From the NCBI GenBank assembly GCA_026419015.1, contig JAOAAF010000003.1, positions 1 through 60,043 of the forward strand: a stretch of 60,043 bases of DNA. The letters run 5' to 3'. How positions within the stretch are numbered: the first letter of the stretch is position 1; each line of letters starts with the position of its first letter. The DNA comes from Spirochaetota bacterium (lineage in GTDB: Bacteria; Spirochaetota; UBA4802; JAGODF01). Shown here one piece after another: positions 5,011 to 17,714 of this stretch. The notes below the pieces were generated by a model. It saw nothing but the letters and a program-made list of their open reading frames with translations, did not search any database and was not told the origin of the DNA. Both the position numbers and the translations under genes were made by a program.

Positions 5011-5508
5011 CTATTTATTTTCAATCATCATTCTATTGCGAACAGAATACAATTTCTGCTTAATATTTTCACCTGTTATTTCATAAATCAGCTTGCAATT
5101 GCCTTCACCATCGTATTCCATTTCAATTACTTTTCCCGCCGAAATGTGCTGCCCCAATTCCTGCGTTACTCTTTTTTTAATTTCACTTCGGGGAATATGC
5201 GCAACATCGCGCGCGATGGTGGTAATAAATTCTTCATAAATTATGTAGTGCGCCATAAGGATCGCCGCTTGCAAAGCCTGAGTTTTGCGTTCAGAAAGAT
5301 CGCCTGCCTTATATTTTGCGGCTCCTGCAGCGCGTACGCGAAACTCATTGTCGGAAATCCACCCAATCTGCGAACGTGGGGGTAACTTGCGCTCATCGCG
5401 CGCCCAGTTGCAAGCGATAAGCAAAAGCAAAATCCCAAGTAATAAAGCTTTTAATAGCGCAAATGCCCGTCGTTTTTCCCGCTTACCTGCGTATCGTTGA
5501 AATTCCAT
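5011..5508 (-). CDS. Lipoprotein, LPP20/LipL21-like fold (tentative)
   Basis: Signal peptide with LLIAC lipobox. Start is probably MEFQR at 5508 (the listed ORF extends to 5577). Paralogous to 7217..7582. Confidence 0.7.
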   Translation of the reverse strand: MEFQRYAGKREKRRAFALLKALLLGILLLLIACNWARDERKLPPRSQIGWISDNEFRVRAAGAAKYKAGDLSERKTQALQAAILMAHYIIYEEFITTIARDVAHIPRSEIKKRVTQELGQHISAGKVIEMEYDGEGNCKLIYEITGENIKQKLYSVRNRMMIENK

Positions 5509-6559
5509 AAACCGGTAACGGCGTGAGATGTCGCTTTTCATTCGTTGTAATCGAGTATATGTACAATCCATTTTCATTTTGATCAGTGCTGGCTAAACCA
5601 ATGACTAATTTATCATTATCGTAAATATCCAACATTGCCTTGCCTAAAGACGAATTGAAGCTTACTCTATACGGCATGAAGGACGAATTTCCCAATCCAT
5701 CCGATTGATATTTTAACAATTTAATACTGCCGGAGTGAGTGCCGATTGCAAAAATCGAAGTGGCATCCATTATTGCATAATCGAATATAGTGCCATCGCT
5801 GTAAGCGTAGGTGTTCGAATTATCACACAACTTCGAAGAGTTCCCTAACCAAAATTGGGCATCCACACGGTCATAAAAAATCGGAAAAAATCCACTCTCA
5901 ACATCACGCGCGATTATTAAATTGCCATTTAGATCGTACAATCGATATTGATAGGTTCCACCCGAAATTTGCTCAACCATATATGAACCATCTCTTTTTG
6001 AAGAAGCGAAAATAGCCACATTAACAGTTCCAGTTTGCCTCATATATTGCCAGGGTGGATTTTGAGACGCTTCAAATCGATATAACTTATTGCCACTCGT
6101 CATCAACACAGGGAAGCCATTTTCATTGGCAAATCCTTGAAACGACGTAGAAAAGTCATACACGATATTCATTCCTTCTCGAATGGCATATACGTAATTC
6201 TTATAGGCATAGTTATCATATTTCGTTACAAAGACCCATCCGGTCTTATCGAGATACACGGTCCCGTTGCATTCACCCTCATATACCTGCATGGAACGAA
6301 AAATCATTTTGTCATCGCACAACAACACCTTCGTATTTTTTACCGCTTCCCCCTCAACGACAATCGCTGCGATCGTATAACTCATGCTCCCAGTGCCGTT
6401 TTTATTATTTTCATCAGCCCTCTCATAAGCAGTTTTTGCGGGATTATACAACTCTTCCCGGCAGCGAGCATTTACCGCCAAAAGGCTTATTATGCTTACT
6501 ATTGCAATAAAAACTCGCCATACGGTATGATGAGCACAAAATTGCAATCTCCCTCTCAT
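5483..6559 (-). CDS. Exported, probably lipid-anchored, beta-rich hypothetical protein
   Basis: 358-aa ORF with a hydrophobic N-terminal segment followed by Cys; rich in Tyr/Gly/Asn beta-strand patterns. Confidence 0.7.
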   Translation of the reverse strand: MRGRLQFCAHHTVWRVFIAIVSIISLLAVNARCREELYNPAKTAYERADENNKNGTGSMSYTIAAIVVEGEAVKNTKVLLCDDKMIFRSMQVYEGECNGTVYLDKTGWVFVTKYDNYAYKNYVYAIREGMNIVYDFSTSFQGFANENGFPVLMTSGNKLYRFEASQNPPWQYMRQTGTVNVAIFASSKRDGSYMVEQISGGTYQYRLYDLNGNLIIARDVESGFFPIFYDRVDAQFWLGNSSKLCDNSNTYAYSDGTIFDYAIMDATSIFAIGTHSGSIKLLKYQSDGLGNSSFMPYRVSFNSSLGKAMLDIYDNDKLVIGLASTDQNENGLYIYSITTNEKRHLTPLPVYGISTIRR

Positions 6560-6662
6560 ACTACCACCTCACAAAGAAGGCCTATTCTTCCATTGTACAG
6601 AATTTTTAAACTTTCCTATCATCTATTTAATATTTCTTTTCTTTAAAGAAGTGTAATTTTTT

Positions 6663-7220
6663 TCAAAGCCCCAACTCATTTGAAATTTCGCGCATCGCAT
6701 CAAGCGCCAGTTCAACAAACTCTGGCAATGAAAATCCAATCTTTTCGCATTCCATGATGACATCGCGGTTTACTCCTCGCGCAAATGCCTTTTCCTTCAT
6801 CCGCTTAATCACTGAAGATGGTTTTACGCTGGCAATTTTTTTGTCGGGATACACCAAAGTTGTGGCCACAATCAAGCCGGTAAGAGTTTCTGCAGCGGCA
6901 AGCGCATGGTGAAATTTTTTGTGGCGCGATTCACCGGGATGTGCCTGCTCGTTATGCAATCGAATCGCTTCGATTATTTCCTCACTCACCCCTGCATCCA
7001 TAAGTATTTTTACCGCTTCTTTGGTATGAACAGAAAGATCCGAATTGGTAATTTCCACATCGATATCGTGCAAAAGCCCTGCCAGTGCCCAGCTCTCTTC
7101 GTCCTCGCCCAATTTTTTTGCAAGCGCGCGCATTACCGCTTCTGTGGCAACGCAATGTTTGACCATGTTTTCGTTTTTCACGTAGGTTTTTAGCAACTCA
7201 AGCGCTTGTGTTCTTTTCAA
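6663..7220 (-). CDS. HD-superfamily (HDIG-type) metal-dependent phosphohydrolase
   Basis: KHCVATE...GLLHDID...LHNE...ETLTGLIVA...KEKAFARGVNR. Confidence 0.88.
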   Translation of the reverse strand: MKRTQALELLKTYVKNENMVKHCVATEAVMRALAKKLGEDEESWALAGLLHDIDVEITNSDLSVHTKEAVKILMDAGVSEEIIEAIRLHNEQAHPGESRHKKFHHALAAAETLTGLIVATTLVYPDKKIASVKPSSVIKRMKEKAFARGVNRDVIMECEKIGFSLPEFVELALDAMREISNELGL

Positions 7221-7582
7221 CGCTTTTTACTCTCCGATTTTCGAAGCCTTTTGCGTAAATTCTTTTTCTCGATTACATAATATACAATTGCATACTCATC
7301 GAACACGTCAAATTTTTTTACAAGGCCATTTCTTACCGGATCCACTGTTTCGTTGAAAATTTCTTTGGCAATCATTTGCGCGTTTAAAAGCGCAGCTTCC
7401 TTGGCAGTTTCGCGTTTCGATATACCGCTTGTGCCTGCTTTTGGAAATCCTTTGCATACAATGAAATACTTATTGTTCCCCTGAAATCCCTGTCGGATTA
7501 CCACGTGGTGCTTTGTTACCTCTCCCATCTGTGCAATTGCGACAATGAACAAAAAGATGGTTGGAATGGCTAAGTTCCCCAT
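7217..7582 (-). CDS. Secreted protein, paralog of 5011..5508
   Basis: N-terminal hydrophobic signal, AKEAALLNAQ motif, AAAGGGG RBS. Confidence 0.72.
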   Translation of the reverse strand: MGNLAIPTIFLFIVAIAQMGEVTKHHVVIRQGFQGNNKYFIVCKGFPKAGTSGISKRETAKEAALLNAQMIAKEIFNETVDPVRNGLVKKFDVFDEYAIVYYVIEKKNLRKRLRKSESKKR

Positions 7583-7727
7583 ATTGCCCCTTTAACACAT
7601 TTTAAGTTCGGCACGATACTAAATTATCTATTTCAACTGATTTTGCGATTCGCTGCCAATCGCTTTTGCACAACGCAAAGCGCATTAAAGTGTTCAAAAT
7701 ACAGCCTTTCGACAAAGTTACGTTGAC

Positions 7728-8090
7728 TTACATTTTTAAAGCTTTTCGCATTTTTTGAGCAAATTCCTGTTCGTTAAGCGGAAATGTAAAATATTCATCT
7801 GCACCGCGTTCGTAGGCATCGATAAACGGAAGTGGGTGTTTTATTACTGAAATTGCAACCACCGGTATTTGTTCCATTCCATGAATTTTTCGTACTTTCT
7901 CAATTACCAGCAAACCATCGAGCGATTCTGAATAAATCACGACAATCACTGCTCGCACATTCCCACCGCCAAGCCGTTGCAAAAATTCCCGCTCGTCTCG
8001 AAAAATCTCACACCGCTCGTTAAAAGAATCCAACGAACGATGCAATGCAACATCATGCTCGCGAACTTCGTTTAGTATTACAAATGCCAT
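7728..8090 (-). CDS. Stand-alone pseudo-receiver (CheY-like) protein
   Basis: Receiver pattern (LDG...IPVVAIS...GADEY.T.P) but the phospho-acceptor Asp and the conserved Lys are absent. Confidence 0.8.
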   Translation of the reverse strand: MAFVILNEVREHDVALHRSLDSFNERCEIFRDEREFLQRLGGGNVRAVIVVIYSESLDGLLVIEKVRKIHGMEQIPVVAISVIKHPLPFIDAYERGADEYFTFPLNEQEFAQKMRKALKM

Positions 8091-8093
8091 CTG

Positions 8094-9386
8094 TCAGTTC
8101 TTTTCCATGTACAGTTTTCGAAGCATTGCGTTCATCCTCGGGCTTTCAATAACGCGAACAATCTTTCGAAAGTTGTCCGATCGAAGGTCTATCTGGATGC
8201 GGCTTTTCTTTCTATTAAGCGTTGCATCGTAAAACACTTCCACCCGTGGGGTAAGTGGTCTTCCTCTAAAAATCTCGATGATGCGCGCAAACTCATACGA
8301 AATCGGTGTGCGCTGATCTTTTCCCACAATTCTTCCCCCCGATTCGATCATCACAAAATTTCCTTCTTCCAAAAAATCCCTACCTCTGTTCAACGAAAGG
8401 GAAAGCGCTTTCAAGAAAAGGTGCACATCCGATACCGAAAAATAATAGTTGGAAGTGTTAAGGATGTAACGAAGCGCCGTGCGGGGCTCATTTCCCTGCC
8501 GCCACGGAGTTGTAGTGGTAAGCGCATCGTACATATCGCAAATCCCTAAGATGCGGACTTCTTCAGGAAGTTTGAAATAAAATTCTCTGCTTGCGCCATC
8601 GCGCTCCTTGCGATTTGGATATCCATAGATGACAAATTTCCGATGATGAAAAAGTGCCCCGTATTTAATTAAATCGCTTATCTTTTTTTGTGGGGAATAC
8701 TTTTCAACATCCGCCAAAATTCGATACCCCTCGCGGGTGTGTTCCAACATTATCTTCATTTCTTCTTTGGAAAGCGGGCCAGGTTTGTCGACAATCTCTT
8801 TCGGGATGCGAAGCTTCCCAATATCGTGCAAGTACCCCGCAATTGACATCGTTCGAATGCGGTCAGCATTGTACGAAGTTTTGTACTGGTAAACCATCGC
8901 CAAAAGGCCCACATTCACCGAGTGAACATAGGTATAGTAATCAAAATTGCTAATATCTTTCAAAAGGGAAAGCACTCCTCCATAGCGATCTTCGCTTTTG
9001 AGATTGCTTAAAAGTTCTACCATATCGCGGTGGGTGTTAAGGTATTGTTCGTATGTCATTGTCCCCGTTTGTCGAACATTTGCATATGTTGCCGCAGTAT
9101 TTTCGGCTAAGCTTTTAATTCTATCCTGCGAAAATATTTCATAATCATAATTGCCAACTTTTTCAGATATGCGCGGGATGAAAAACCGAATACCCTGCTT
9201 TGATTTCTCTGCGATTTCTTCTTTGGTGATCGATTTACCAGCGTGAAAAATGATGTTTTCGTTTTGGTCGTAAATATTAAACGTGAGAATTTTCTCCCCG
9301 CTGAGCTTCTCAAAAAATGAATGGGAAATCTCTTCGTAGCGCGAAAGGTCGATTGCAATTTCGTTTTTCCCGGCAAAATCTTCCAT
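8094..9386 (-). CDS. HD-GYP domain protein (variant motifs)
   Basis: YTYVHSVNV, LHDIGK, HHRKFVIYGYP, CDMYDALT. Confidence 0.88.
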   Translation of the reverse strand: MEDFAGKNEIAIDLSRYEEISHSFFEKLSGEKILTFNIYDQNENIIFHAGKSITKEEIAEKSKQGIRFFIPRISEKVGNYDYEIFSQDRIKSLAENTAATYANVRQTGTMTYEQYLNTHRDMVELLSNLKSEDRYGGVLSLLKDISNFDYYTYVHSVNVGLLAMVYQYKTSYNADRIRTMSIAGYLHDIGKLRIPKEIVDKPGPLSKEEMKIMLEHTREGYRILADVEKYSPQKKISDLIKYGALFHHRKFVIYGYPNRKERDGASREFYFKLPEEVRILGICDMYDALTTTTPWRQGNEPRTALRYILNTSNYYFSVSDVHLFLKALSLSLNRGRDFLEEGNFVMIESGGRIVGKDQRTPISYEFARIIEIFRGRPLTPRVEVFYDATLNRKKSRIQIDLRSDNFRKIVRVIESPRMNAMLRKLYMEKN

Positions 9387-9395
9387 AAAAAACCA

Positions 9396-10298
9396 TCATT
9401 CGCCTAAAAATATCTTTTCAAAAAACGATTCCATGCTCTTTACCGATGGATTTTTCACTACTTGTTCCCATATTGAATTCATGGATAATAAAAAGTGATT
9501 CGAATTTTCGGACATCAGCGCCGGAACACCCTCACGCAAACTTTTATGAAAAAGAGTTGGATCGTTATACACAAATCCTGCAAAAAATATTTTCACTCCA
9601 ATTCCAAACTGAGCAAGCGTTTTTTCGAGACTACTAAACGCTTGGTATGCTTCCTGATATCCCGTTGCCATATTTACGCAAATATCAATGGGTCGCCTCT
9701 TGTTTTCCAATGCCATGAATTTTATGACCTTGTAGGCATCCAGCAATGAAGTGGATACCGGATTTATTACGAGCAATGTGTAATCCGAAAACATAATTTG
9801 ACGCATAATTATTTTATTAAGCCCAGCCCCAGTGTCAACCACAATCCATTCGTAATGTTCTTCCAACTTATTGAGTTCGCTTAATATTTTTTCATTCGCC
9901 GTCACTTCGATTTCGTTAATTCGCTTTTCATCGCCCCCAAACGAGATGAGATCGACGCCATACTGCGTATGCACAATATAATGCGGCAACGAAGAAGGAT
10001 CCTCTAAAAAACGATCTAAACATGGCGAAAGCTTCTCTCCCAGCATCAAATGCGCATTGGAAAGATGATAATCAGCATCGAACAAAAGCACCTTATTTGC
10101 GGAAAACGTTGATGCCGAATTCATCCCTATCCGTTTTGCCATCGCTACTGCAAGATTTACAGAAATAAACGTTTTGCCCGTTCCCCCTTTCCCACCGCTA
10201 ACCGTGAGAACTTTTGAACGCTTTCGTCTCCGTGCTGGCATATCGAATTTCCATTTATATAAAATTTTGTACAATTTATCTTTGAACAACGACTGCAT
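9396..10298 (-). CDS. MinD/FlhG(FleN)-family ATPase
   Basis: Deviant Walker A GGKGGTGKT, DAD...SN, DTGAG, and a C-terminal amphipathic SMESFFEKIF. Alternative start at 10241. Confidence 0.88.
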   Translation of the reverse strand: MQSLFKDKLYKILYKWKFDMPARRRKRSKVLTVSGGKGGTGKTFISVNLAVAMAKRIGMNSASTFSANKVLLFDADYHLSNAHLMLGEKLSPCLDRFLEDPSSLPHYIVHTQYGVDLISFGGDEKRINEIEVTANEKILSELNKLEEHYEWIVVDTGAGLNKIIMRQIMFSDYTLLVINPVSTSLLDAYKVIKFMALENKRRPIDICVNMATGYQEAYQAFSSLEKTLAQFGIGVKIFFAGFVYNDPTLFHKSLREGVPALMSENSNHFLLSMNSIWEQVVKNPSVKSMESFFEKIFLGE

Positions 10299-11832
10299 CC
10301 TGGGCAGTTAAACCCGAGAAATGCAAAAGGTTAATAACTTCACAAAAAACTTCAAAAATATCGGGATCAAAAAGATACGATTCCCTTTTTAACACTTCCA
10401 ATGCAACCTCAGGAGTTGCTTGCTCGCGAAACGGCTTGCGAGAAGTCAATGCAGCAAAGCTGTCGCACAATCCAATTATACGCGCATATAACGGAATTGC
10501 CAATCCCGATAGCCGCGCTGGATATCCATTTCCATTATATCGTTCGTGATGAGCGCGAATACCTTCAACAACTGCTGAAGGTAGATTCATTACTTCAGCT
10601 ACTTCTGCCGAATACTGTGGGTGCATAAGAATCTTCGCCATCTCATCTTTTGTAAGCTGCGCCTTTTTATTCAATATGGCATCGGGAATGCGAATAAAAC
10701 CAACGTTTTGCAGAAGCGCCGCCAATTCGAGTTCTTTCATTTGGAATTTCGTCAATCCAAGCCGAAGTCCAATTTCGCGTGCAAGCAACCGTACTTTTCG
10801 AGAATGATCCCACTCGTACTTTGACTGCAACAACAGCAAATATCCCTCAGCATATCTTTCAACCGGTTCCAAAAGGGTGGTGCTTTCTTCGTTTTCATCT
10901 CGCAAAATTTCACCTGGGGATTTCATCATCTCGAGCAACAAGCGCGATTTTTTGCTTATTGTCTCATTTTGATCCAACGCAAGCAAATTGAGCGCCTTCT
11001 TGAGAGACGCTGAAGGATTTTGAGAAATGAGCTTTTTCGCATTCTGGAGTAAAAGAAGTTTTTCATCATCGCTGCGTGAGCCCAATCGCTCTACGACTTT
11101 CTTAGCCACTTCTTCTGCCGCATCTACGTGGACTGGCGGTGGCGGAATTTTTCGCATACGCGAACGGAAAAACAAAAGAATTAATATCAAAACTAAAGAA
11201 ATACCTGCCGCCACCCCAATCAAAACAAACGAGAACGGAGATAAACGAAAGAAACCCTTCAGGCTTCCTTCCGCATTCAAAGCTTTTTGCTGAGATTTGA
11301 GTTCCACATACAATTTTGAAAGTTTTTCATCGATTCTATTCATTTTCTCAGCAAGCACAGCAGTTTTACGCAAATCGGCACGAGCAGTTTTTGTTTCCTG
11401 CACCTCACTCACCTCGCGCTTTGGCATCGCTTTTTCTGCAACAATCTCTTTTTTTGGCTCTCGATTTTCATTCGCGATCGCTTTTTCTGATTTGGAAAGT
11501 TGCGACACGGTCGATTCGCTTTTCGCAGCAAGCGTTTTTTGCTCTCCCTCTTTTGGCGGCTCTATCGCGGTGAGCGGTGATCCCTTATCGGTTAAATTTT
11601 TTAGATCGTGTTCTTTTTTCATTTTCCAAAACCACTTCGACGCTTCGGGATGATTGGGATTCATCTTCATTGCCTGCTTGAATAAATCGTACGCAGTTTT
11701 TAAATTTCCTGAATTGTAATTCGCAACTCCGCGTGCAACTACCTCATCCACCGAATTTGTTTGTGAATATCCTAACGCAACGATAAGCATTACCCACGCA
11801 ATCAAATAAGAAAATCGTTTCATACTCGTCAC
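10276..11832 (-). CDS. Signal peptide - TPR - linker/coiled coil - TM - degenerate HD-GYP protein
   Basis: TPR-like GVANYNSGNLKTAYDLFKQAMKMNPNHPEA, one TM helix, HHERYNGNGYP present, HD replaced by QN. Likely ATG at 11823. Confidence 0.85.
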   Translation of the reverse strand: MTSMKRFSYLIAWVMLIVALGYSQTNSVDEVVARGVANYNSGNLKTAYDLFKQAMKMNPNHPEASKWFWKMKKEHDLKNLTDKGSPLTAIEPPKEGEQKTLAAKSESTVSQLSKSEKAIANENREPKKEIVAEKAMPKREVSEVQETKTARADLRKTAVLAEKMNRIDEKLSKLYVELKSQQKALNAEGSLKGFFRLSPFSFVLIGVAAGISLVLILILLFFRSRMRKIPPPPVHVDAAEEVAKKVVERLGSRSDDEKLLLLQNAKKLISQNPSASLKKALNLLALDQNETISKKSRLLLEMMKSPGEILRDENEESTTLLEPVERYAEGYLLLLQSKYEWDHSRKVRLLAREIGLRLGLTKFQMKELELAALLQNVGFIRIPDAILNKKAQLTKDEMAKILMHPQYSAEVAEVMNLPSAVVEGIRAHHERYNGNGYPARLSGLAIPLYARIIGLCDSFAALTSRKPFREQATPEVALEVLKRESYLFDPDIFEVFCEVINLLHFSGLTAQDAVVVQR

Positions 11833-11844
11833 CCCTTAAAAATA

Positions 11845-13527
11845 TTAATAGGCTTTTACCACCCCGTGGCCAAATCGCGCGACGGGCATTGCAGCAACCG
11901 AACTCCAATTTGAACTAGGAAGCGAAACCAAATCGATTTTATAGCATGCTGCTACCCCACCACTCGAATGCGATGTAGCTCCGCCAAAGACATACAAATA
12001 ATCGCCAGATACAATTGCCGCGGCGAAGCCAATTGACAATGGATATTGATTTGTAAAAGCTGTCCACGCAGCCGGTGCGACGAATGGATACACCAAATAC
12101 CCCGCATAATTCAGAGAGGTGCTTGTTGTTGCACCTTGAAATACGTAATTGCCTGTGGTACCAGTTATTGCTGAAAACCCTCCCACTGTGACCATCATCG
12201 CCGGATATCCCTGCTTTCGAAATAGCGCCACAACCTGTCCGGTGCGATTCGACGGCAGAGCAACTTCCGTAACGCCAGTTGAAAGCTGCGTCAGAGAAAT
12301 AATAAATGCATCAACTACATTGGTAAGCGTTGCTGCAGCTGTTCTGCCACCCATAAAATAGCACGATCCTTCCAGCACAACCCCATATCGCTCAGAGCTG
12401 GCAGGCACTACGGCTGTAGGCGAACTCCAACTGTTGCTTGCAATATCGTATATCTGATTCCCTGCGGATGATGCCCATGCGGCTGTAGCATTCCCCGTTG
12501 TTCCTGCTAAAATGTAAATCTTATTGTTAAATAAAAATTCCCCAACATTTGCCCGTGCTGTAAAACCAGCACTTGACCCAGAAGACCAGCTATTGGTTTG
12601 TACATCATAAATTTGAACCGAATTGCTCACCGTGCCATCAGAGCGAAAACCGCCGATTACGTATATTTTCCCATTCGTTGCAGTAACCGAAGCAAAACTC
12701 ACTGGCACATACGTGCCGCTTGCATCTTTCGCAATGTTTGGATACCATGTATCGGTTACGGGATCGTAAAGATCGATCTGCGAAACTACCGTAGAAATTG
12801 CCGTTCCGCTTAAGCCCCCAAGTAGCCAAAACCCTCTTTGCTTTTGCGATCGCGTTGGAGATGGTTCTGTGATAGTAAATTGCTGTTCGGGTGTTACGGC
12901 GTTTCCAATTTTATCATGGTAATTTCGCACCCGATAGTAATACGTTGTGTTCGACGACAACCCGCTTATTGAAATGCTGTGATTCTGAGTTGGCGTAGTT
13001 GTTGGCACCGTGGCATGAGTGTAATTCCCCGGTGAGGTGCCATATTCGAGCGAATGCGTGGTCGCTACATTGGTCTGCCATGTTATCGTGCCTGAGCTTA
13101 AATCGGCATTGGGAGTAAACGTCAAATTCGAAACCGTAATTGTCAGCGACTCGGCTTGAAAAATACTGAAGGATACCTCCCCGCTTGCTTTGACTTCATT
13201 AGTATTTGGCGATTCGACAAATACCTTTGCATAGTAGGTAACGTTCGGCGTTAAATTGTTCACGGTTATCGTGTGGGTTGTTGCTGGTAGCGGACTTTTA
13301 TCCGTGCGATGTACGTAATTCCCGCTTTCAATTCCATAAACCGCATATGCGACTGTGGGAATATTCGTCGTAAAACGAAGCGTTGCAGAATCCACGCTTG
13401 TTTCCGTGAGCACATCAGAAACGAACAAGTTCTCAAGGTTATCAATAAGAGCCTCTTCAAACATCGCGCTACACGAAATTAATCCAATGGTTAAAAGTAA
13501 CATGGGTATAAAACAAAAAATTCTCAT
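11845..13527 (-). CDS. Lipoprotein with two FN3-like domains and a Kelch beta-propeller
   Basis: LISC lipobox; LTPNVTYY and LSSNTTYYYRV FN3 signatures; KIYVIGG...YD...W Kelch repeats. Confidence 0.88.
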   Translation of the reverse strand: MRIFCFIPMLLLTIGLISCSAMFEEALIDNLENLFVSDVLTETSVDSATLRFTTNIPTVAYAVYGIESGNYVHRTDKSPLPATTHTITVNNLTPNVTYYAKVFVESPNTNEVKASGEVSFSIFQAESLTITVSNLTFTPNADLSSGTITWQTNVATTHSLEYGTSPGNYTHATVPTTTPTQNHSISISGLSSNTTYYYRVRNYHDKIGNAVTPEQQFTITEPSPTRSQKQRGFWLLGGLSGTAISTVVSQIDLYDPVTDTWYPNIAKDASGTYVPVSFASVTATNGKIYVIGGFRSDGTVSNSVQIYDVQTNSWSSGSSAGFTARANVGEFLFNNKIYILAGTTGNATAAWASSAGNQIYDIASNSWSSPTAVVPASSERYGVVLEGSCYFMGGRTAAATLTNVVDAFIISLTQLSTGVTEVALPSNRTGQVVALFRKQGYPAMMVTVGGFSAITGTTGNYVFQGATTSTSLNYAGYLVYPFVAPAAWTAFTNQYPLSIGFAAAIVSGDYLYVFGGATSHSSGGVAACYKIDLVSLPSSNWSSVAAMPVARFGHGVVKAY

Positions 13528-13542
13528 CGCTTGCCACCTCCT

Positions 13543-14433
13543 TTAAAAACCATAATAAATGCCAAAACCAACTGCCATCGTCTGGAAATGGCGTTTGCGC
13601 TGAAATACAACGCAATAAGTTGGACTAAGGCGAAATGAAATTCCTCGGTACAGATGCACATCAACTCCCGCAGAAGCGCTCATTTCAGTATCGATCCCGC
13701 TTACCCGAGTGCTTTTTACAAAGTTTCGCTCATCGTTAATGTGGATATACGATGGTCCAATTGCCAACTGCACAAAGGGAGTAATCCTTTCAGAAAATGG
13801 AAACAGGTAGTGAAAATCGTGATATGAATACGTGACGGTTGGTTTTAGCGAAATATTCACATAGCGGACATCTTCGCTCGGCACATACCCCATATTGCGA
13901 TAGGAAAAATCTAACCCAAACGAAATGCCGCGTACCAATGGGAAATTTTTTTCTCCGTATGCCGAAAGTGCATACGAAGAATCGAAATCGTTGCGAAATT
14001 CACCAATTACCCGATAGTAGGTAATCATCATTCCAATCTTCGCATCGAATCCATAATATTTTGTCGTGAGCGTTTCATCCGAAATTTTCTCAATCAAATC
14101 AGGTACAATTGTAATGTTTCCAAGTTGTAAATTGAGCAAAATTCCAATTTCCTCATCGTAATCTTCAAACTTTCCCTGCAATACCGTGCCATCACGAAGA
14201 TATACTGAGACAGAAATTTTCTTTAGATCCGCAGCACCCTTTGATGTTTTTAAAATTTCCGATGAAGAATAGATTTTCTCCTTGCCGAACGATTCCACAA
14301 CCACCTTTTCTCGCTCAACGCTTACAATCTTTCCGAGAAGAATTTTCCCATCCAGCAAGGTAAGCGAATCGTACGAATACAATGGCATAGACATAAAAAA
14401 GCATACAATACTACTGACTATTTTCATTTTCAT
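13543..14433 (-). CDS. Outer-membrane beta-barrel with duplicated N-terminal beta domain
   Basis: Signal peptide, two LxDGxxLxGK repeats, amphipathic strands, terminal GIYYGF (C-terminal Phe, BAM-type signal). Confidence 0.8.
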   Translation of the reverse strand: MKMKIVSSIVCFFMSMPLYSYDSLTLLDGKILLGKIVSVEREKVVVESFGKEKIYSSSEILKTSKGAADLKKISVSVYLRDGTVLQGKFEDYDEEIGILLNLQLGNITIVPDLIEKISDETLTTKYYGFDAKIGMMITYYRVIGEFRNDFDSSYALSAYGEKNFPLVRGISFGLDFSYRNMGYVPSEDVRYVNISLKPTVTYSYHDFHYLFPFSERITPFVQLAIGPSYIHINDERNFVKSTRVSGIDTEMSASAGVDVHLYRGISFRLSPTYCVVFQRKRHFQTMAVGFGIYYGF

Positions 14434-14764
14434 AAAAACTCCTCACGGCGTATTTAGTATTTCTTCTATACTTCATCTCAACGAAAACATTTTAGGTTCA
14501 AAATGGACCAAAAATTTAACGATGAAAAATATATAAATATCGTTCATACTAACCCAAAATGTTGTAAAACCCCCTTCCATCTATCATAATGAAGTGAAGC
14601 AGATTATAAATCTGGTTAATAATATTTAAAATACCACTGGACTTTTACTTTTCATTTTTTTTTACAAATTTTATAAAAATTATTAACACAATTCATATTG
14701 TGTTAGATATTTATTATTAATGCTTATTTTATAAAATTCGTTGAGGAAATTGTGAGATTATGTG

Positions 14765-15838
14765 TTATGGCTCTTCTGTACTGCTTACTAACTTATAAAT
14801 TTCCCAGAGAGAATAAAACAGCGTCAATAGCAAGGGCCCAAGCAATATGCCTGCCAATCCAAATGCTTTGATGCTCCCAATCAGCAGAAAGAAAAAGATT
14901 AGAGGGTGAAAATTGAGCGTTTTCCCAAAAATTGCTGGTTTAAGTATATTTTCTAAAATTAAATACCATGCCATGCTCCATGTTGCAACAAAGGCAGCAC
15001 TCCCATAGCTTCCTTTTATTATGAGAAATACAGTGGCCGGAATCCAAATAAACATCGTCCCTATTACCGGGATAAGTGACATTATTGCGCCAATCGATGC
15101 CCACAAAAGGACTCCTGAGATTTTTACAATAAAAAATCCTATTCCAAGGCAAATTCCTTGAAGTGCCATAATCACAATATTCCCTACCAGTAACACTTTC
15201 ACCACTTCTTTAAGCCGCTTCACTACATCTTTTTCCACATCATCGGGAAATGGAAGGATGCGGTAGAAAGGTTCCTCAAGTTTGTACCCATCCTTAAAAA
15301 GAAAAAAAAGGATAAGAAGCATGAATACAAAATTCATTGCAAAATTAATTGAAAATCCTACCACAAGCGTCACATTCGTAAAAATCGACATCGCTGTCTG
15401 CTCGAGGAATGCCAGCACTTTTGACAAAATTTCTCCTCGATTTACTTGAAACTGTTCGTATAACCAGCCAACCACCGCATTATTGCCAATCCACTCCGCC
15501 AACTTTGCCCGCACAATCTCATCTTGGATGTACTTATAAAATTCAAATGCCTGTTTAGCAATCCCTAAAAGCAACAGCAGCACTGGGAAAAACACCACCG
15601 CGCAAAGTCCCAACAGCATAAGAAAACTTGCCAAAGAGTCGAGCCGCACAGCTTTTTTCAATTTATCGTACCATGTGCGGAGTGCAATATAAATTATAAG
15701 CGCAAACAAAAATGGCCAGAAATAGTAACGGAATATAAATAAAAGACCAGCAATGACCGTTCCCAGCAATAAATAAAAAAGGCGCAACAATGTGCGGTTT
15801 TCTCTGATCGCTGCGTACGATTTTTTGCTTTCAACCAT
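14765..15838 (-). CDS. AI-2E family transporter
   Basis: FFLFKDG, SLIPVIG, ENILKP, HPL...FGLAGILLGP motifs. Confidence 0.92.
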   Translation of the reverse strand: MVESKKSYAAIRENRTLLRLFYLLLGTVIAGLLFIFRYYFWPFLFALIIYIALRTWYDKLKKAVRLDSLASFLMLLGLCAVVFFPVLLLLLGIAKQAFEFYKYIQDEIVRAKLAEWIGNNAVVGWLYEQFQVNRGEILSKVLAFLEQTAMSIFTNVTLVVGFSINFAMNFVFMLLILFFLFKDGYKLEEPFYRILPFPDDVEKDVVKRLKEVVKVLLVGNIVIMALQGICLGIGFFIVKISGVLLWASIGAIMSLIPVIGTMFIWIPATVFLIIKGSYGSAAFVATWSMAWYLILENILKPAIFGKTLNFHPLIFFFLLIGSIKAFGLAGILLGPLLLTLFYSLWEIYKLVSSTEEP

Positions 15839-15875
15839 ACTGCCTTATAAAAATTTTAAAAATACATCCCTCGTA

Positions 15876-16040
15876 TTAGCGCGTGAGATAGTTCGTTAAA
15901 TCAGTGGCAATTTTCTGAATCGCATGGTCGAGGTACTCGTTATCTGCCATGCGCTTTTTATATTCTTCGATCGTAAGTTTATCCCTGCCAACCCGACGTT
16001 CTTGTATCTCACGATCATCCTTGCTCATGAGATTTTCCAT
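15876..16040 (-). CDS. 54-aa small protein, FlgM C-terminal-like (absent from the ORF track)
   Basis: Manually translated: MENLMSKDDREIQERRVGRDKLTIEEYKKRMADNEYLDHAIQKIATDLTNYLTR. GAGGGG RBS 7 nt upstream. Confidence 0.75.
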   Translation of the reverse strand: MENLMSKDDREIQERRVGRDKLTIEEYKKRMADNEYLDHAIQKIATDLTNYLTR

Positions 16041-16106
16041 AAGTTTTCCCCTCACAAATAGGGGGCCCCTCCCCTCCCTGGGCGGGTTTGCTCGCCCCTG
16101 TTTAAT

Positions 16107-16134
16107 TGTTCGGATTTTTTTAAGGTTGACTTAA
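16107..16134 (-). promoter_or_regulatory. Putative sigma-28 promoter for the 54-aa ORF
   Basis: TTAAG-N15-TCCGAACA. Confidence 0.45.
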
Positions 16135-16163
16135 CGAAACTTTATGCAATCGACGAAAAAAAT

Positions 16164-16520
16164 TTAGCGGAAAATATCTTCAACCCACTCGCAGTTGTCA
16201 TTGTGGATTGCTAAAAGATCAAATCTGAAAATCAAATTCGGATTCTTTTTTAAATCGGGGTTTAGCCTTAAAAAAGCCTCCGCAACCACTTTTAGTTTTT
16301 TTATCTTTGAAGGGCTAATTGCATACAACGCGCCACCGTAAAGATCCGTTCGACGGTTTTTTACTTCAACAAATACAATTAAATTGCCTTTTCGCACAAT
16401 GAGGTCGATCTCGCCTGTTCTTCCAAAACGAAAATTTTTTGAAAGAATTTCAAAACCCTTATTTTCAAAAAAACGGCATGCGAGAACTTCGCCCTTTGTC
16501 CCCAATTCCCTTGCGTTCAT
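16164..16520 (-). CDS. yraN: YraN (UPF0102) family endonuclease-like protein
   Basis: GEIDLI...FVEVK...RFD motifs. Confidence 0.92.
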   Translation of the reverse strand: MNARELGTKGEVLACRFFENKGFEILSKNFRFGRTGEIDLIVRKGNLIVFVEVKNRRTDLYGGALYAISPSKIKKLKVVAEAFLRLNPDLKKNPNLIFRFDLLAIHNDNCEWVEDIFR

Positions 16521-16529
16521 CTTCCCCTT

Positions 16530-17714
16530 TCAAAGTACATCGAGAAAACTAATTCCAGCTTCCTCCTCATCGAGAGCTTTTACAATATACAACGAAATTT
16601 CTTCTAAAAGATTTATGATTTTTGTCTCCCGAATTCGAGTACCCTTCGCGTCAAACACCAATTTAACAATTGGCCGAAGCGGTTTTTGCGGAATCGAGCC
16701 AATGACAATCCCAACGCTTTGATCGTTAAGGCGCACCATTGATCCGATGGGATACACTGACATGCGCGAAAGAAAAACCTTTAGGATCACTGGATCGAAG
16801 CGGTTCACCCCACTTGAGAGCAAATTCTTCATCGCATGATAAAAATACTGCCGTTTCCGATATGCCCTATTCGTAATTTGGGCTTCGTAGCTATCTGCAA
16901 TTGCCGCAATCTTTGCGGCTTCATCAATCTGATGGCCCTTTAACCCGCGAGGATACCCCCGCCCGTCATACGATTCGTGATGCTGGAGCGAAACAATCGC
17001 AACGCGTTCGCTCACACTCCCAAGCTGTTTGATCACGCGATATCCATGCAACGGATGCGTTTTGATGAGATTAAACTCCTGTTCGGTTAAATTCGACTGT
17101 TTGTGAATAATGTAAGGAGGGATTTTTAACATCCCCGCGTCGATGAGCAATGTCCCCAATCCGAGATCTCGAAGCTTTTCAGGAGAGTACTTAAGCGAAA
17201 TTCCAATAATGAGTGCATAATATGTCACATTCACCGAATGAACCACCAAATAGTTTTTCCCTTCATCGAGCCCAAACAAAAAGATAAACGAGTTAGGACT
17301 TTCGCCAAGAATTTTTATAATATCGTTGAGTACCGCAGAAAGGCCATCGATGGAAAATTTTTCATTTGCTTTAATCGCATTGTGCACGCGTTCCACTTCA
17401 AGGCATGCCCGCCGATGAATTTCGATAAACTCCTTCCGCTTTTTTAAAAGCGTTTCGTAATCGCGCATGATGGTGCGAACATCCATCCCACCAGTGGAGA
17501 CTCTCTGTTCGAGCTTAAGGTCAGCTTCGGTAGCAATCATGTCCCCTGCAGTTTCCACATATCGCACGCCCAAACTCTGCAACTTTCGGATATCGCTTTC
17601 TTTAATGGTAATATTCGAATCCACGAGTATATTATTGCTATCGATGTAAACCGGTCGGTTAAACCGCATGCCCGGCTTTAACTCATCTACGCTTAATTTT
17701 CTCATTTGTGCCAT
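16530..17714 (-). CDS. HD-GYP domain protein (HD replaced by ID)
   Basis: ELKPGM N-terminus, HSVNV, LLIDAGM, HHESYDGRGYPRGL, YPIGSMV. Confidence 0.9.
   Translation of the reverse strand: MAQMRKLSVDELKPGMRFNRPVYIDSNNILVDSNITIKESDIRKLQSLGVRYVETAGDMIATEADLKLEQRVSTGGMDVRTIMRDYETLLKKRKEFIEIHRRACLEVERVHNAIKANEKFSIDGLSAVLNDIIKILGESPNSFIFLFGLDEGKNYLVVHSVNVTYYALIIGISLKYSPEKLRDLGLGTLLIDAGMLKIPPYIIHKQSNLTEQEFNLIKTHPLHGYRVIKQLGSVSERVAIVSLQHHESYDGRGYPRGLKGHQIDEAAKIAAIADSYEAQITNRAYRKRQYFYHAMKNLLSSGVNRFDPVILKVFLSRMSVYPIGSMVRLNDQSVGIVIGSIPQKPLRPIVKLVFDAKGTRIRETKIINLLEEISLYIVKALDEEEAGISFLDVL

Follow-up and report, generated by a model that had tools for sequence, protein, structure and literature searches.

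A spirochaete six-gene array comprises two separable cassettes, one with a candidate HD-GYP receptor and a MinD-like ATPase

Anatomy of the six-gene array

We analyzed a 60,043-nucleotide (nt) stretch of DNA, here called the window, which covers positions 1 to 60,043 of contig JAOAAF010000003.1 from a Spirochaetota bacterium (GenBank assembly GCA_026419015.1). Our subject is an array of six genes, g1 to g6, that lie close together on the minus strand. An initial annotation of the window, made from the sequence alone, had described these six co-oriented genes as a single trans-envelope signaling operon, and the list of open reading frames (ORFs) bore out the genes and their coordinates (Table 1). 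The array consists of two separable cassettes that became adjacent in this genus by a genus-level fusion. We refer to g1 to g4 as module A and to g5 and g6 as module B.

TABLE 1 Genes of the array and the spacer that precedes them
Feature	Module	Position	Strand	Description
g1	A	13543..14433	-	296 amino acids (aa); secreted, 8-stranded outer membrane barrel at the C terminus, preceded by two small SH3-like beta domains
g2	A	11845..13527	-	560 aa; lipoprotein, two FN3-like domains and a Kelch beta-propeller
g3	A	10276..11832	-	518 aa, GTG start; TPR-like hairpin, stalk, transmembrane helix, non-catalytic HD-GYP domain (judged from sequence)
g4	A	9396..10298	-	300 aa; MinD/FlhG-like deviant-Walker-A ATPase
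g5	B	8094..9386	-	430 aa; three-domain HD-GYP phosphodiesterase (predicted)
g6	B	7728..8090	-	120 aa; single-domain receiver-like protein
Upstream spacer of g1		14434..14764	-	331 nt, AT-rich, GC minimum 0.23; likely promoter region

Measured between the longest ORFs, the intergenic distances from g1 to g6 were 15, 12, -23, 9, and 3 nt, as initially annotated, and both the 145-nt gap 3' of g6 and the AT-rich region of about 330 nt upstream of g1 were confirmed. Two of these distances are nevertheless likely to change, since two genes probably start later than their longest ORFs. The other six g4 orthologs all begin near M20 (10241), and the protein-collection entry for the window's product has 281 aa; M20 is probably the true start. 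Because of this start, the g3/g4 junction would be a gap of about +34 nt and not a 23-nt overlap. For g3, the protein-collection entry has 515 aa and the true start is probably the ATG at 11823; because of the 515-aa product, the g2/g3 gap would be about 21 nt.

Judging from the sequence, the six genes almost certainly share one transcript in this genus. Between g4 and g5 there are 9 nt in the window and 2 nt in both congeners that retain the adjacency. GAGGAG precedes the g1 ATG at 14433, and the spacer upstream of g1 contains a TTTAAA-16-TATAAT site (14630-14603), although such sites are no commoner than in shuffled sequence, and promoter-like and terminator-like matches as a whole occur at chance level against shuffles. 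An Rfam search of positions 7000-15200 returned no family, and thus no riboswitch was found upstream of g1. The sequence downstream of g6 folds no better than its shuffles (z, 0.33).

The order of the genes follows the predicted location of their products, from the outer membrane through a lipoprotein and the inner membrane to the cytoplasm, and domain, lipobox, and structure model evidence agrees on this. The domain assignments first made for the six proteins mostly hold, but three of them (OMP_b-brl in g1, TPR in g3, and Response_reg in g6) fall below the Pfam cut-offs.

Synteny and distribution of the two modules

To follow the array across relatives, we searched 41 related genomes with g5, g4, and g3, fetched the matching regions, and mapped all six proteins and their flanks. 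Full-length g5 orthologs (43 to 83% identity) were found in 12 of the 41 genomes, g4 orthologs in 6, and g3 orthologs in the same 6. Both modules were present in five genomes, module B alone in seven, and module A alone in one (G005). Counted by the absence of a g5 ortholog at an E value of ≤1e-30, module A stands without g5 in four genomes (G005 and G093, both 94% complete, G122, and G123).

Each module is conserved in itself. The genes g1-g2-g3-g4 lie together and in this order in the window, G001, G003, G005, G010, G093, and L037; the loci of G002 and L036 start at a contig end that cuts g2, and from there g2-g3-g4 run in the usual order. The order of module A is therefore kept in all nine genomes that hold a g4 ortholog, two of the loci being cut by a contig end, and no locus contradicts it. 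The flanks are unrelated housekeeping genes that vary by genome (acetyl-CoA synthetase, aldose epimerase, oxidoreductase, RNase III, ClpB, RibB, and nitronate monooxygenase). Likewise, a g6-like ORF directly follows g5 in 13 of 13 loci, from families f1, f5, and f7.

The two modules were found side by side only in the window genome, G001, and G003, that is, in two of the three congeners. Outside this genus, module A is near g5-g6 in none of ten loci. In the third congener (G002), the immediate neighbor of g5-g6 is the AI-2E transporter gene, which in the window comes before g1, and g2-g3-g4 is on a separate contig with unrelated genes after it. In G010, which belongs to another genus of the same family, module A comes after the same AI-2E transporter gene and has a monooxygenase gene behind it, and g5 is on another contig. 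Because the modules are separate in relatives and each is also found alone, the six genes are not one conserved unit, and the view of the array as a single six-gene system was not supported by the comparison.

Module A is a rare but conserved four-gene combination, and module B is commoner. Of 122 genomes of the order, 7 have a g4 ortholog; family f1 contributes 6 of its 11 genomes (window genome included) and f4 contributes 1 of 64. A scan of 185,579 species genomes with g4 gave 43 confirmed loci, of which 8 are g4 orthologs with 47 to 76% identity; six of these duplicate places already found. The eight loci are labeled as spirochaete, Leptospira-like, or Turneriella metagenome-assembled genomes, except for one short contig, which is binned as Caldithrix. 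After them comes a locus (L038) that has 30% identity and lies at the expected flhG place in an apparent flagellar export operon, judged by ORF sizes alone. Similarly, among 5.8 billion protein clusters, 30 match g4 at 46 to 100% identity, followed by one at 31%, and a scan of Joint Genome Institute (JGI) metagenome contigs with the g4 alignment gave no ortholog among the matches listed, the best identity among them being 32%. With this gap in identity, g4 forms a separate small orthogroup.

Motifs and folds of the encoded proteins

The product of g3 begins with a hydrophobic segment and continues with a TPR-like hairpin, a long charged stretch, a transmembrane helix (residues ∼200-222) followed by RSRMRK, and an HD-GYP domain. 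The last of these is well supported (HD_5, 117.8 bits against a gathering score of 27.2), and g3 matches the structure of DvhD (PDB 9rbz) with an E value of 3.4e-17. In an alignment to V-cGAP3 and DvhD, the HD dyad of g3 reads QN and the next Lys is Phe. The same position reads QN, EN, KD, or RD in the orthologs, with the HD His absent from 11 of 11. The protein therefore lacks the metal-center residues that correspond to H221, D222, and K225 of PmGH, for which we used the metal-ligand list in section 16 of PMC12943098, and its HD-GYP domain is, by its motifs, catalytically dead.

Other parts of the domain are retained. The HHExxDGxGYP motif is present in g3 (AHHERYNGNGYP), with H428, G436, Y437, and P438 invariant among the orthologs and H429 found in at least 90% of them. 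The residues that contact the nucleotide in DvhD (M646, R650, Y652, and R653) align to L, K, F, and R in g3, and the corresponding motif reads R-P-Y-R in g3 of two other genera (G005 and G010). A nucleotide-contact motif of the form R/K-x-Y/F-R/K thus appears to be conservatively retained. DvhD, from Desulfovibrio vulgaris, is an inner-membrane protein in which the HD of the HD-GYP domain is replaced by SQ; it binds cyclic di-GMP (c-di-GMP) with a Kd of ∼99 nM but does not hydrolyze the nucleotide, and its proposed role is to pass the signal inside-out, toward the periplasm, in the manner of LapD (PMC13090378). By analogy, g3 may bind a cyclic dinucleotide, most likely c-di-GMP, without hydrolysis. 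A prediction of the complex of g3 residues 225-518 with g4 scored 0.01 against a mark of 0.32 and, having been run without controls, weighs neither way. ESM Atlas matches to g3 and to the C-terminal domain of g5 (scores, 0.82 to 0.88) gave no informative family and are leads at most.

The presumed partner, g4, has Pfam matches to AAA_31, CbiA, ParA, and CBP_BcsQ, the last at 29.3 bits against a cut-off of 21.3. Its Walker A (KGGTGKT) and DTGAG motifs are intact, and GKGGTGK, DAD, DTGAG, and the C-terminal FF are invariant in 29 of 29 sequences, so that the deviant Walker A, A', and B motifs are all in place. The C-terminal helix, ESFFEKIF, is conserved and predicted to be amphipathic, of the membrane-targeting type. 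We considered whether g4 is a true FlhG or MinD and rejected both. It adjoins none of flhF, minC, and minE, and it falls far short of the NCBIfam cut-offs for MinD (TIGR01968, 58.9 against 212.9; TIGR01969 [minD_arch], 78.4 against 201.75); the drop from 46% to 31% identity described above also sets its orthologs apart. The canonical flagellar operon of the same genome (flhB-flhA-flhF-flhG-fliA) lies elsewhere, on contig C131 (C131:13249-20123; L153), and g4 has 23 to 24% identity to its flhF-linked FlhG. Because that FlhG sits on C131, g4 is an additional paralog of the MinD/FlhG type; several of its orthologs are labeled FlhG by JGI.

The features of g3 and g4 can also be read without nucleotide sensing. 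Module A would then be a positioning or landmark system, in which the dead HD-GYP domain is a docking scaffold for g4 and g4 places the outer membrane and lipoprotein complex at a defined cell site. Such a role would fit the loss of the HD His and the next Lys in all g3 orthologs and the intact MinD/FlhG-type ATPase with its invariant C-terminal FF helix; the nearest non-orthologous relative of g4 in the scan of species genomes (30%) is at the expected flhG place of a flagellar-like operon (L038, by ORF sizes alone). It would also agree with PMC12943098, which regards c-di-GMP binding by similar Leptospira variants as unlikely. However, the conservation of GYP, the HH pair, and R/K-x-Y/F-R/K over two orders is hard to explain for a pure scaffold, and DvhD, an HD-GYP protein that also lacks the HD, binds c-di-GMP tightly (PMC13090378). 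We regard a scaffold without nucleotide sensing as unlikely and prefer to read g3 as a receptor.

The barrel of g1 was recognized mainly by its predicted structure. Its match to the Pfam family OMP_b-brl reached 21.8 bits, below the cut-off of 28.7, but an AlphaFold2 (AF2) model from a 55-sequence alignment (pLDDT, 95) shows a signal helix, two all-beta domains (residues 23-64 and 74-118), and eight long strands (131-295), and the C-terminal residue is Phe. In Foldseek the barrel matched OmpA, NspA, OmpX, and Ail (TM-score by target, 0.6 to 0.8), with E values of 5e-8 to 1e-5 for OmpA, NspA, and OmpX, as expected for this barrel fold. Weak matches to Leptospira-specific NCBIfam models were also found (LA_3334, 34 against 200 bits; Lepto_7_Nterm, 28 against 43). 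For g2, the Kelch_1 match is strong (E value, 5.8e-23), the FN3-like Pur_ac_phosph_N matches in two stretches (53 bits), and the lipobox Cys is conserved in six of six orthologs. The number of FN3-like domains before the Kelch propeller is two in the window, one in L037 (L037:5206-6627), and none in four other orthologs. The FN3 domains are thus accessory, and the pattern suggests that a domain used as a spacer or for binding has been gained or lost as a module. In the congener G001, one in-frame stop splits g2 into two ORFs, 142 and 254 aa long (L013:10863-12062, minus strand). Either g2 is a pseudogene there or the stop is a sequencing error; g1, g3, and g4 are intact in that genome.

Another possibility is that operon-level co-regulation is all that unites module A: ordinary envelope proteins g1 and g2, for example a carbohydrate-binding Kelch lipoprotein and a barrel, would share a promoter with unrelated cytoplasmic proteins g3 and g4. 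The g1 family is indeed the larger one and paralogous (80 representatives at an E value of ≤0.001 among 1.84 billion proteins, with its weak Leptospira-specific NCBIfam matches, against the 30 clusters of g4), and g2 has anywhere between no and two FN3 domains. Against co-regulation alone, the four genes keep the same order in all nine genomes, which, judged by their labels, are not all of one lineage, while every flanking gene changes. Moreover, the best-conserved part of g3 is its periplasmic hairpin: residues 35-82 hold 17 of the 43 invariant columns in 48 residues. Because the hairpin is the most conserved part, we argue that g3 has a conserved periplasmic partner, and we think it very unlikely that co-regulation is the whole explanation.

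In module B, g5 carries an HD_5 domain (59.5 bits) that looks functional. Aligned to PmGH (4mcw), it keeps seven of the eight metal ligands, the equivalent of K225, and GYP; H155, H187, D188, K191, H216, H247, H248, and D284 are in place. The deviations are Tyr at E185, a third-metal ligand according to PMC12943098, and HHR in place of HHE. In an alignment of 22 sequences, H155, H187, D188, K191, H216, and D284 are invariant, and H247 and H248 occur in at least 90%. We conclude that g5 is probably an active HD-GYP phosphodiesterase of the bimetal type. In its AF2 model (pLDDT, 84.9), an alpha/beta domain at the N terminus leads into the HD-GYP core, and a beta-barrel plus helix (344-427) forms the C-terminal part. 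Foldseek returned PmGH, Bd1817, and PA4781, all by the HD-GYP core alone; a search with the whole of g5 found no match for the C-terminal barrel, and Pfam found no DUF3391 in g5.

The second gene of module B, g6, scored 22.1 bits against the 30.2-bit cut-off of Response_reg, and its closest solved match is PleD, chiefly the second, non-phosphorylated receiver-like domain. In the window, the position of Asp53 is Val and the conserved Lys is Phe, so that the residues expected of a receiver (PF00072) are missing. Among 12 orthologs, counted after one mis-framed ORF row was dropped, 7 have the Asp, 5 have V, A, or S (including all four of this genus), and none has the Lys. Most of the g6 proteins outside this genus (L016-L024) keep the phospho-acceptor Asp and none keeps the Lys; the Asp was lost specifically in the genus whose module B became joined behind module A.

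With both modules described, the model that came with the initial annotation can be weighed. It holds that the six proteins form one kinase-free trans-envelope relay: the barrel and the lipoprotein would pick up a signal at the surface, and the TPR protein would hand it on to the ATPase, the second HD-GYP protein, and the pseudo-receiver. The genes are co-oriented with gaps of ≤34 nt in the window and two congeners, and predicted locations run from outside to inside. As the annotation had noted, the cluster is without a kinase: Pfam gave no match to a histidine-kinase family in the six genes or the flanks (5011-17714), in which three ORFs had no Pfam match of any kind. The model had also taken all three signaling domains to deviate from their consensus, which is right for the dead HD-GYP domain of g3 and the pseudo-receiver g6 but not for g5, which retains its catalytic residues. 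Further, one congener and one other genus carry A and B on different contigs, where each module borders on other genes; A occurs without B in four genomes and B without A in seven; and the g6 Asp is kept in 7 of 12 orthologs, all outside this genus. Because of that retention, the g6 family probably receives input from a kinase encoded elsewhere. A single outside-in relay through all six proteins is thus quite unlikely, and the comparative data point elsewhere; for g1 to g4 alone the trans-envelope idea is reasonable.

The array also has neighbors with HD-type domains, giving four such genes within ∼11 kb. A third HD-GYP protein of 394 aa is encoded at 16530-17714 (minus strand; HD_5, 95 bits; a weak DUF3391 match, 18 against 27.8). 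Its HD dyad reads ID and the next Lys reads Met, and because of these changes it looks degenerate, with 87 to 88% identity in three congeners. Between this gene and g1 lie a UPF0102 gene (16164-16520) and the AI-2E transporter gene (14765-15838). Just downstream of the array, positions 6663-7220 (minus strand) encode 185 aa with matches to HD (38.6 bits) and HDOD (25 bits). The downstream flank (5011-7582) is not conserved in congeners.

Proposed explanation and comparison with known systems

From the observed gene anatomy, folds, motif states, and two-module synteny, we infer nucleotide binding by g3, contacts among the proteins, a direction of signaling, and an output. We propose, at a probability of about 0.45, that the array is two cassettes in which g3 is a non-hydrolyzing cyclic dinucleotide receptor that links envelope partners to g4, and module B is a local phosphodiesterase. 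Module A would be a self-contained, envelope-spanning unit. The stalked hairpin of g3 would contact the Kelch lipoprotein g2, the SH3-like periplasmic domains of g1, or both. On the cytoplasmic side, g4 would be a membrane-bound partner for ATP-dependent assembly or positioning of the complex. Module B, 9 nt after g4, could serve as a local sink for the nucleotide read by g3.

It is important to note several points that weigh against this proposal. The TPR_2 match of g3 falls short of its cut-off (19.2 bits against 27), every g3 ortholog has Phe in place of the Lys that follows the HD, and the g3 contact motif in this genus (K-P-F-R) is kept only conservatively. A dead HD-GYP domain also need not be a receptor, because PMC12943098 casts doubt on c-di-GMP binding by divergent Leptospira variants: its authors judge HD-GYP proteins without the key residues unlikely to bind it. 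No output gene (adhesin, protease, polysaccharide synthase, or flagellar gene) was found in or beside module A in any locus examined. The adjacency of A and B may lack functional meaning because the modules are independent in most genomes. Finally, contact of g1 or g2 with g3 and cooperation between A and B are steps that we infer.

A more specific version of the proposal is that module A is an undescribed trans-envelope cyclic dinucleotide system, in which the HD-GYP receptor and the MinD-like ATPase would switch or position a Kelch-barrel outer membrane complex through a periplasm-spanning stalk tipped by the TPR-like hairpin. A surface property would then be controlled from the inside out with neither a protease nor an adhesin, and g3 would be the first receptor of the HD-GYP type to be coupled to a SIMIBI ATPase. 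In this detail we consider the proposal doubtful. The initial annotation had not recognized the gene combination as a named system, and the literature we searched likewise held none with this content; searches on HD-GYP in Leptospira, degenerate HD-GYP, FlhG with HD-GYP, and Kelch and lipoproteins with HD-GYP found no description of the cassette.

Beyond this locus, the array illustrates that tight operon packing in one genome can mask two independent modules. DvhD (2026) is the single structural precedent we met for a non-catalytic HD-GYP receptor; if our proposal is true, g3 would be a second, unrelated architecture and would show the breadth with which HD-GYP domains have been recruited as second-messenger sensors. 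Conserved in a four-gene cassette with its own MinD-type ATPase and outer membrane partners, it would also link nucleotide sensing to ATPase-driven spatial organization of the spirochaete envelope. The practical reach is limited, as the cassette is seldom found and all of its known carriers are uncultured.

Among known systems, we excluded antiphage defense, for which the sole PADLOC matches were weak Cas3-HD matches on g5 (21.5 and 18.3 bits). Module B is best compared with the three-domain HD-GYP proteins of the literature: like them, g5 and the 394-aa paralog have the HD-GYP domain in the middle, with an N-terminal domain on one side and an unannotated C-terminal beta-barrel and helix on the other, and the published description of the C-terminal part fits. 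In contrast to the g5 locus, the paper on those proteins mentions, in its available text, no partner receiver gene and no MinD, FlhG, or Kelch neighbors.

For module A, the closest counterpart of g3 is DvhD (PDB 9rbz and 9rc0), the LapD-like receptor of the Dvh adhesin system. Each sits in the inner membrane, with one domain in the periplasm and, on the cytoplasmic side, an HD-GYP domain in which the HD is replaced (SQ in DvhD, QN in g3). In the periplasm, however, DvhD carries a dCache domain and g3 a stalked, TPR-like hairpin, the stalk being charged. DvhD also contains a PAS domain, which g3 lacks, and has lost the HH pair, which g3 keeps. Lap and Dvh systems also include a periplasmic protease, a giant adhesin, and type I secretion. 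None of these is in or beside module A: no LapG/DvhG-type protease, adhesin, or type I secretion gene was found in the six genes, the flanks (5011-17714), or the flanks of five other module A loci, and we rejected a Lap/Dvh system proper. Conversely, the Dvh system as described in the available sections of PMC13090378 has no MinD-like ATPase, unlike module A.

The ATPase finds its counterparts elsewhere. FlhG/FleN and MinD share with g4 the signature-lysine Walker A, DTGAG, and the C-terminal amphipathic helix, and in FleQ-FleN such an ATPase is paired with a c-di-GMP receptor. In the enterobacterial cellulose secretion system, BcsE contacts BcsQ. The BcsQ-BcsE pair resembles module A in joining a MinD-family ATPase to a c-di-GMP-binding protein with degenerate domains in an envelope-spanning system with TPR and outer membrane barrel parts; the degenerate domains of BcsE are REC or GGDEF, and that of module A is HD-GYP. 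A Bcs cellulose system itself was rejected, with no match to BcsA, BcsB, or any glycosyltransferase in the six genes and flanks and with g4 at 37.5 bits against the 157.85-bit cut-off of NCBIfam BcsQ. By analogy, module A would be most like a receptor of the Lap/Dvh type joined to an ATPase partnership of the FleN or BcsQ type.

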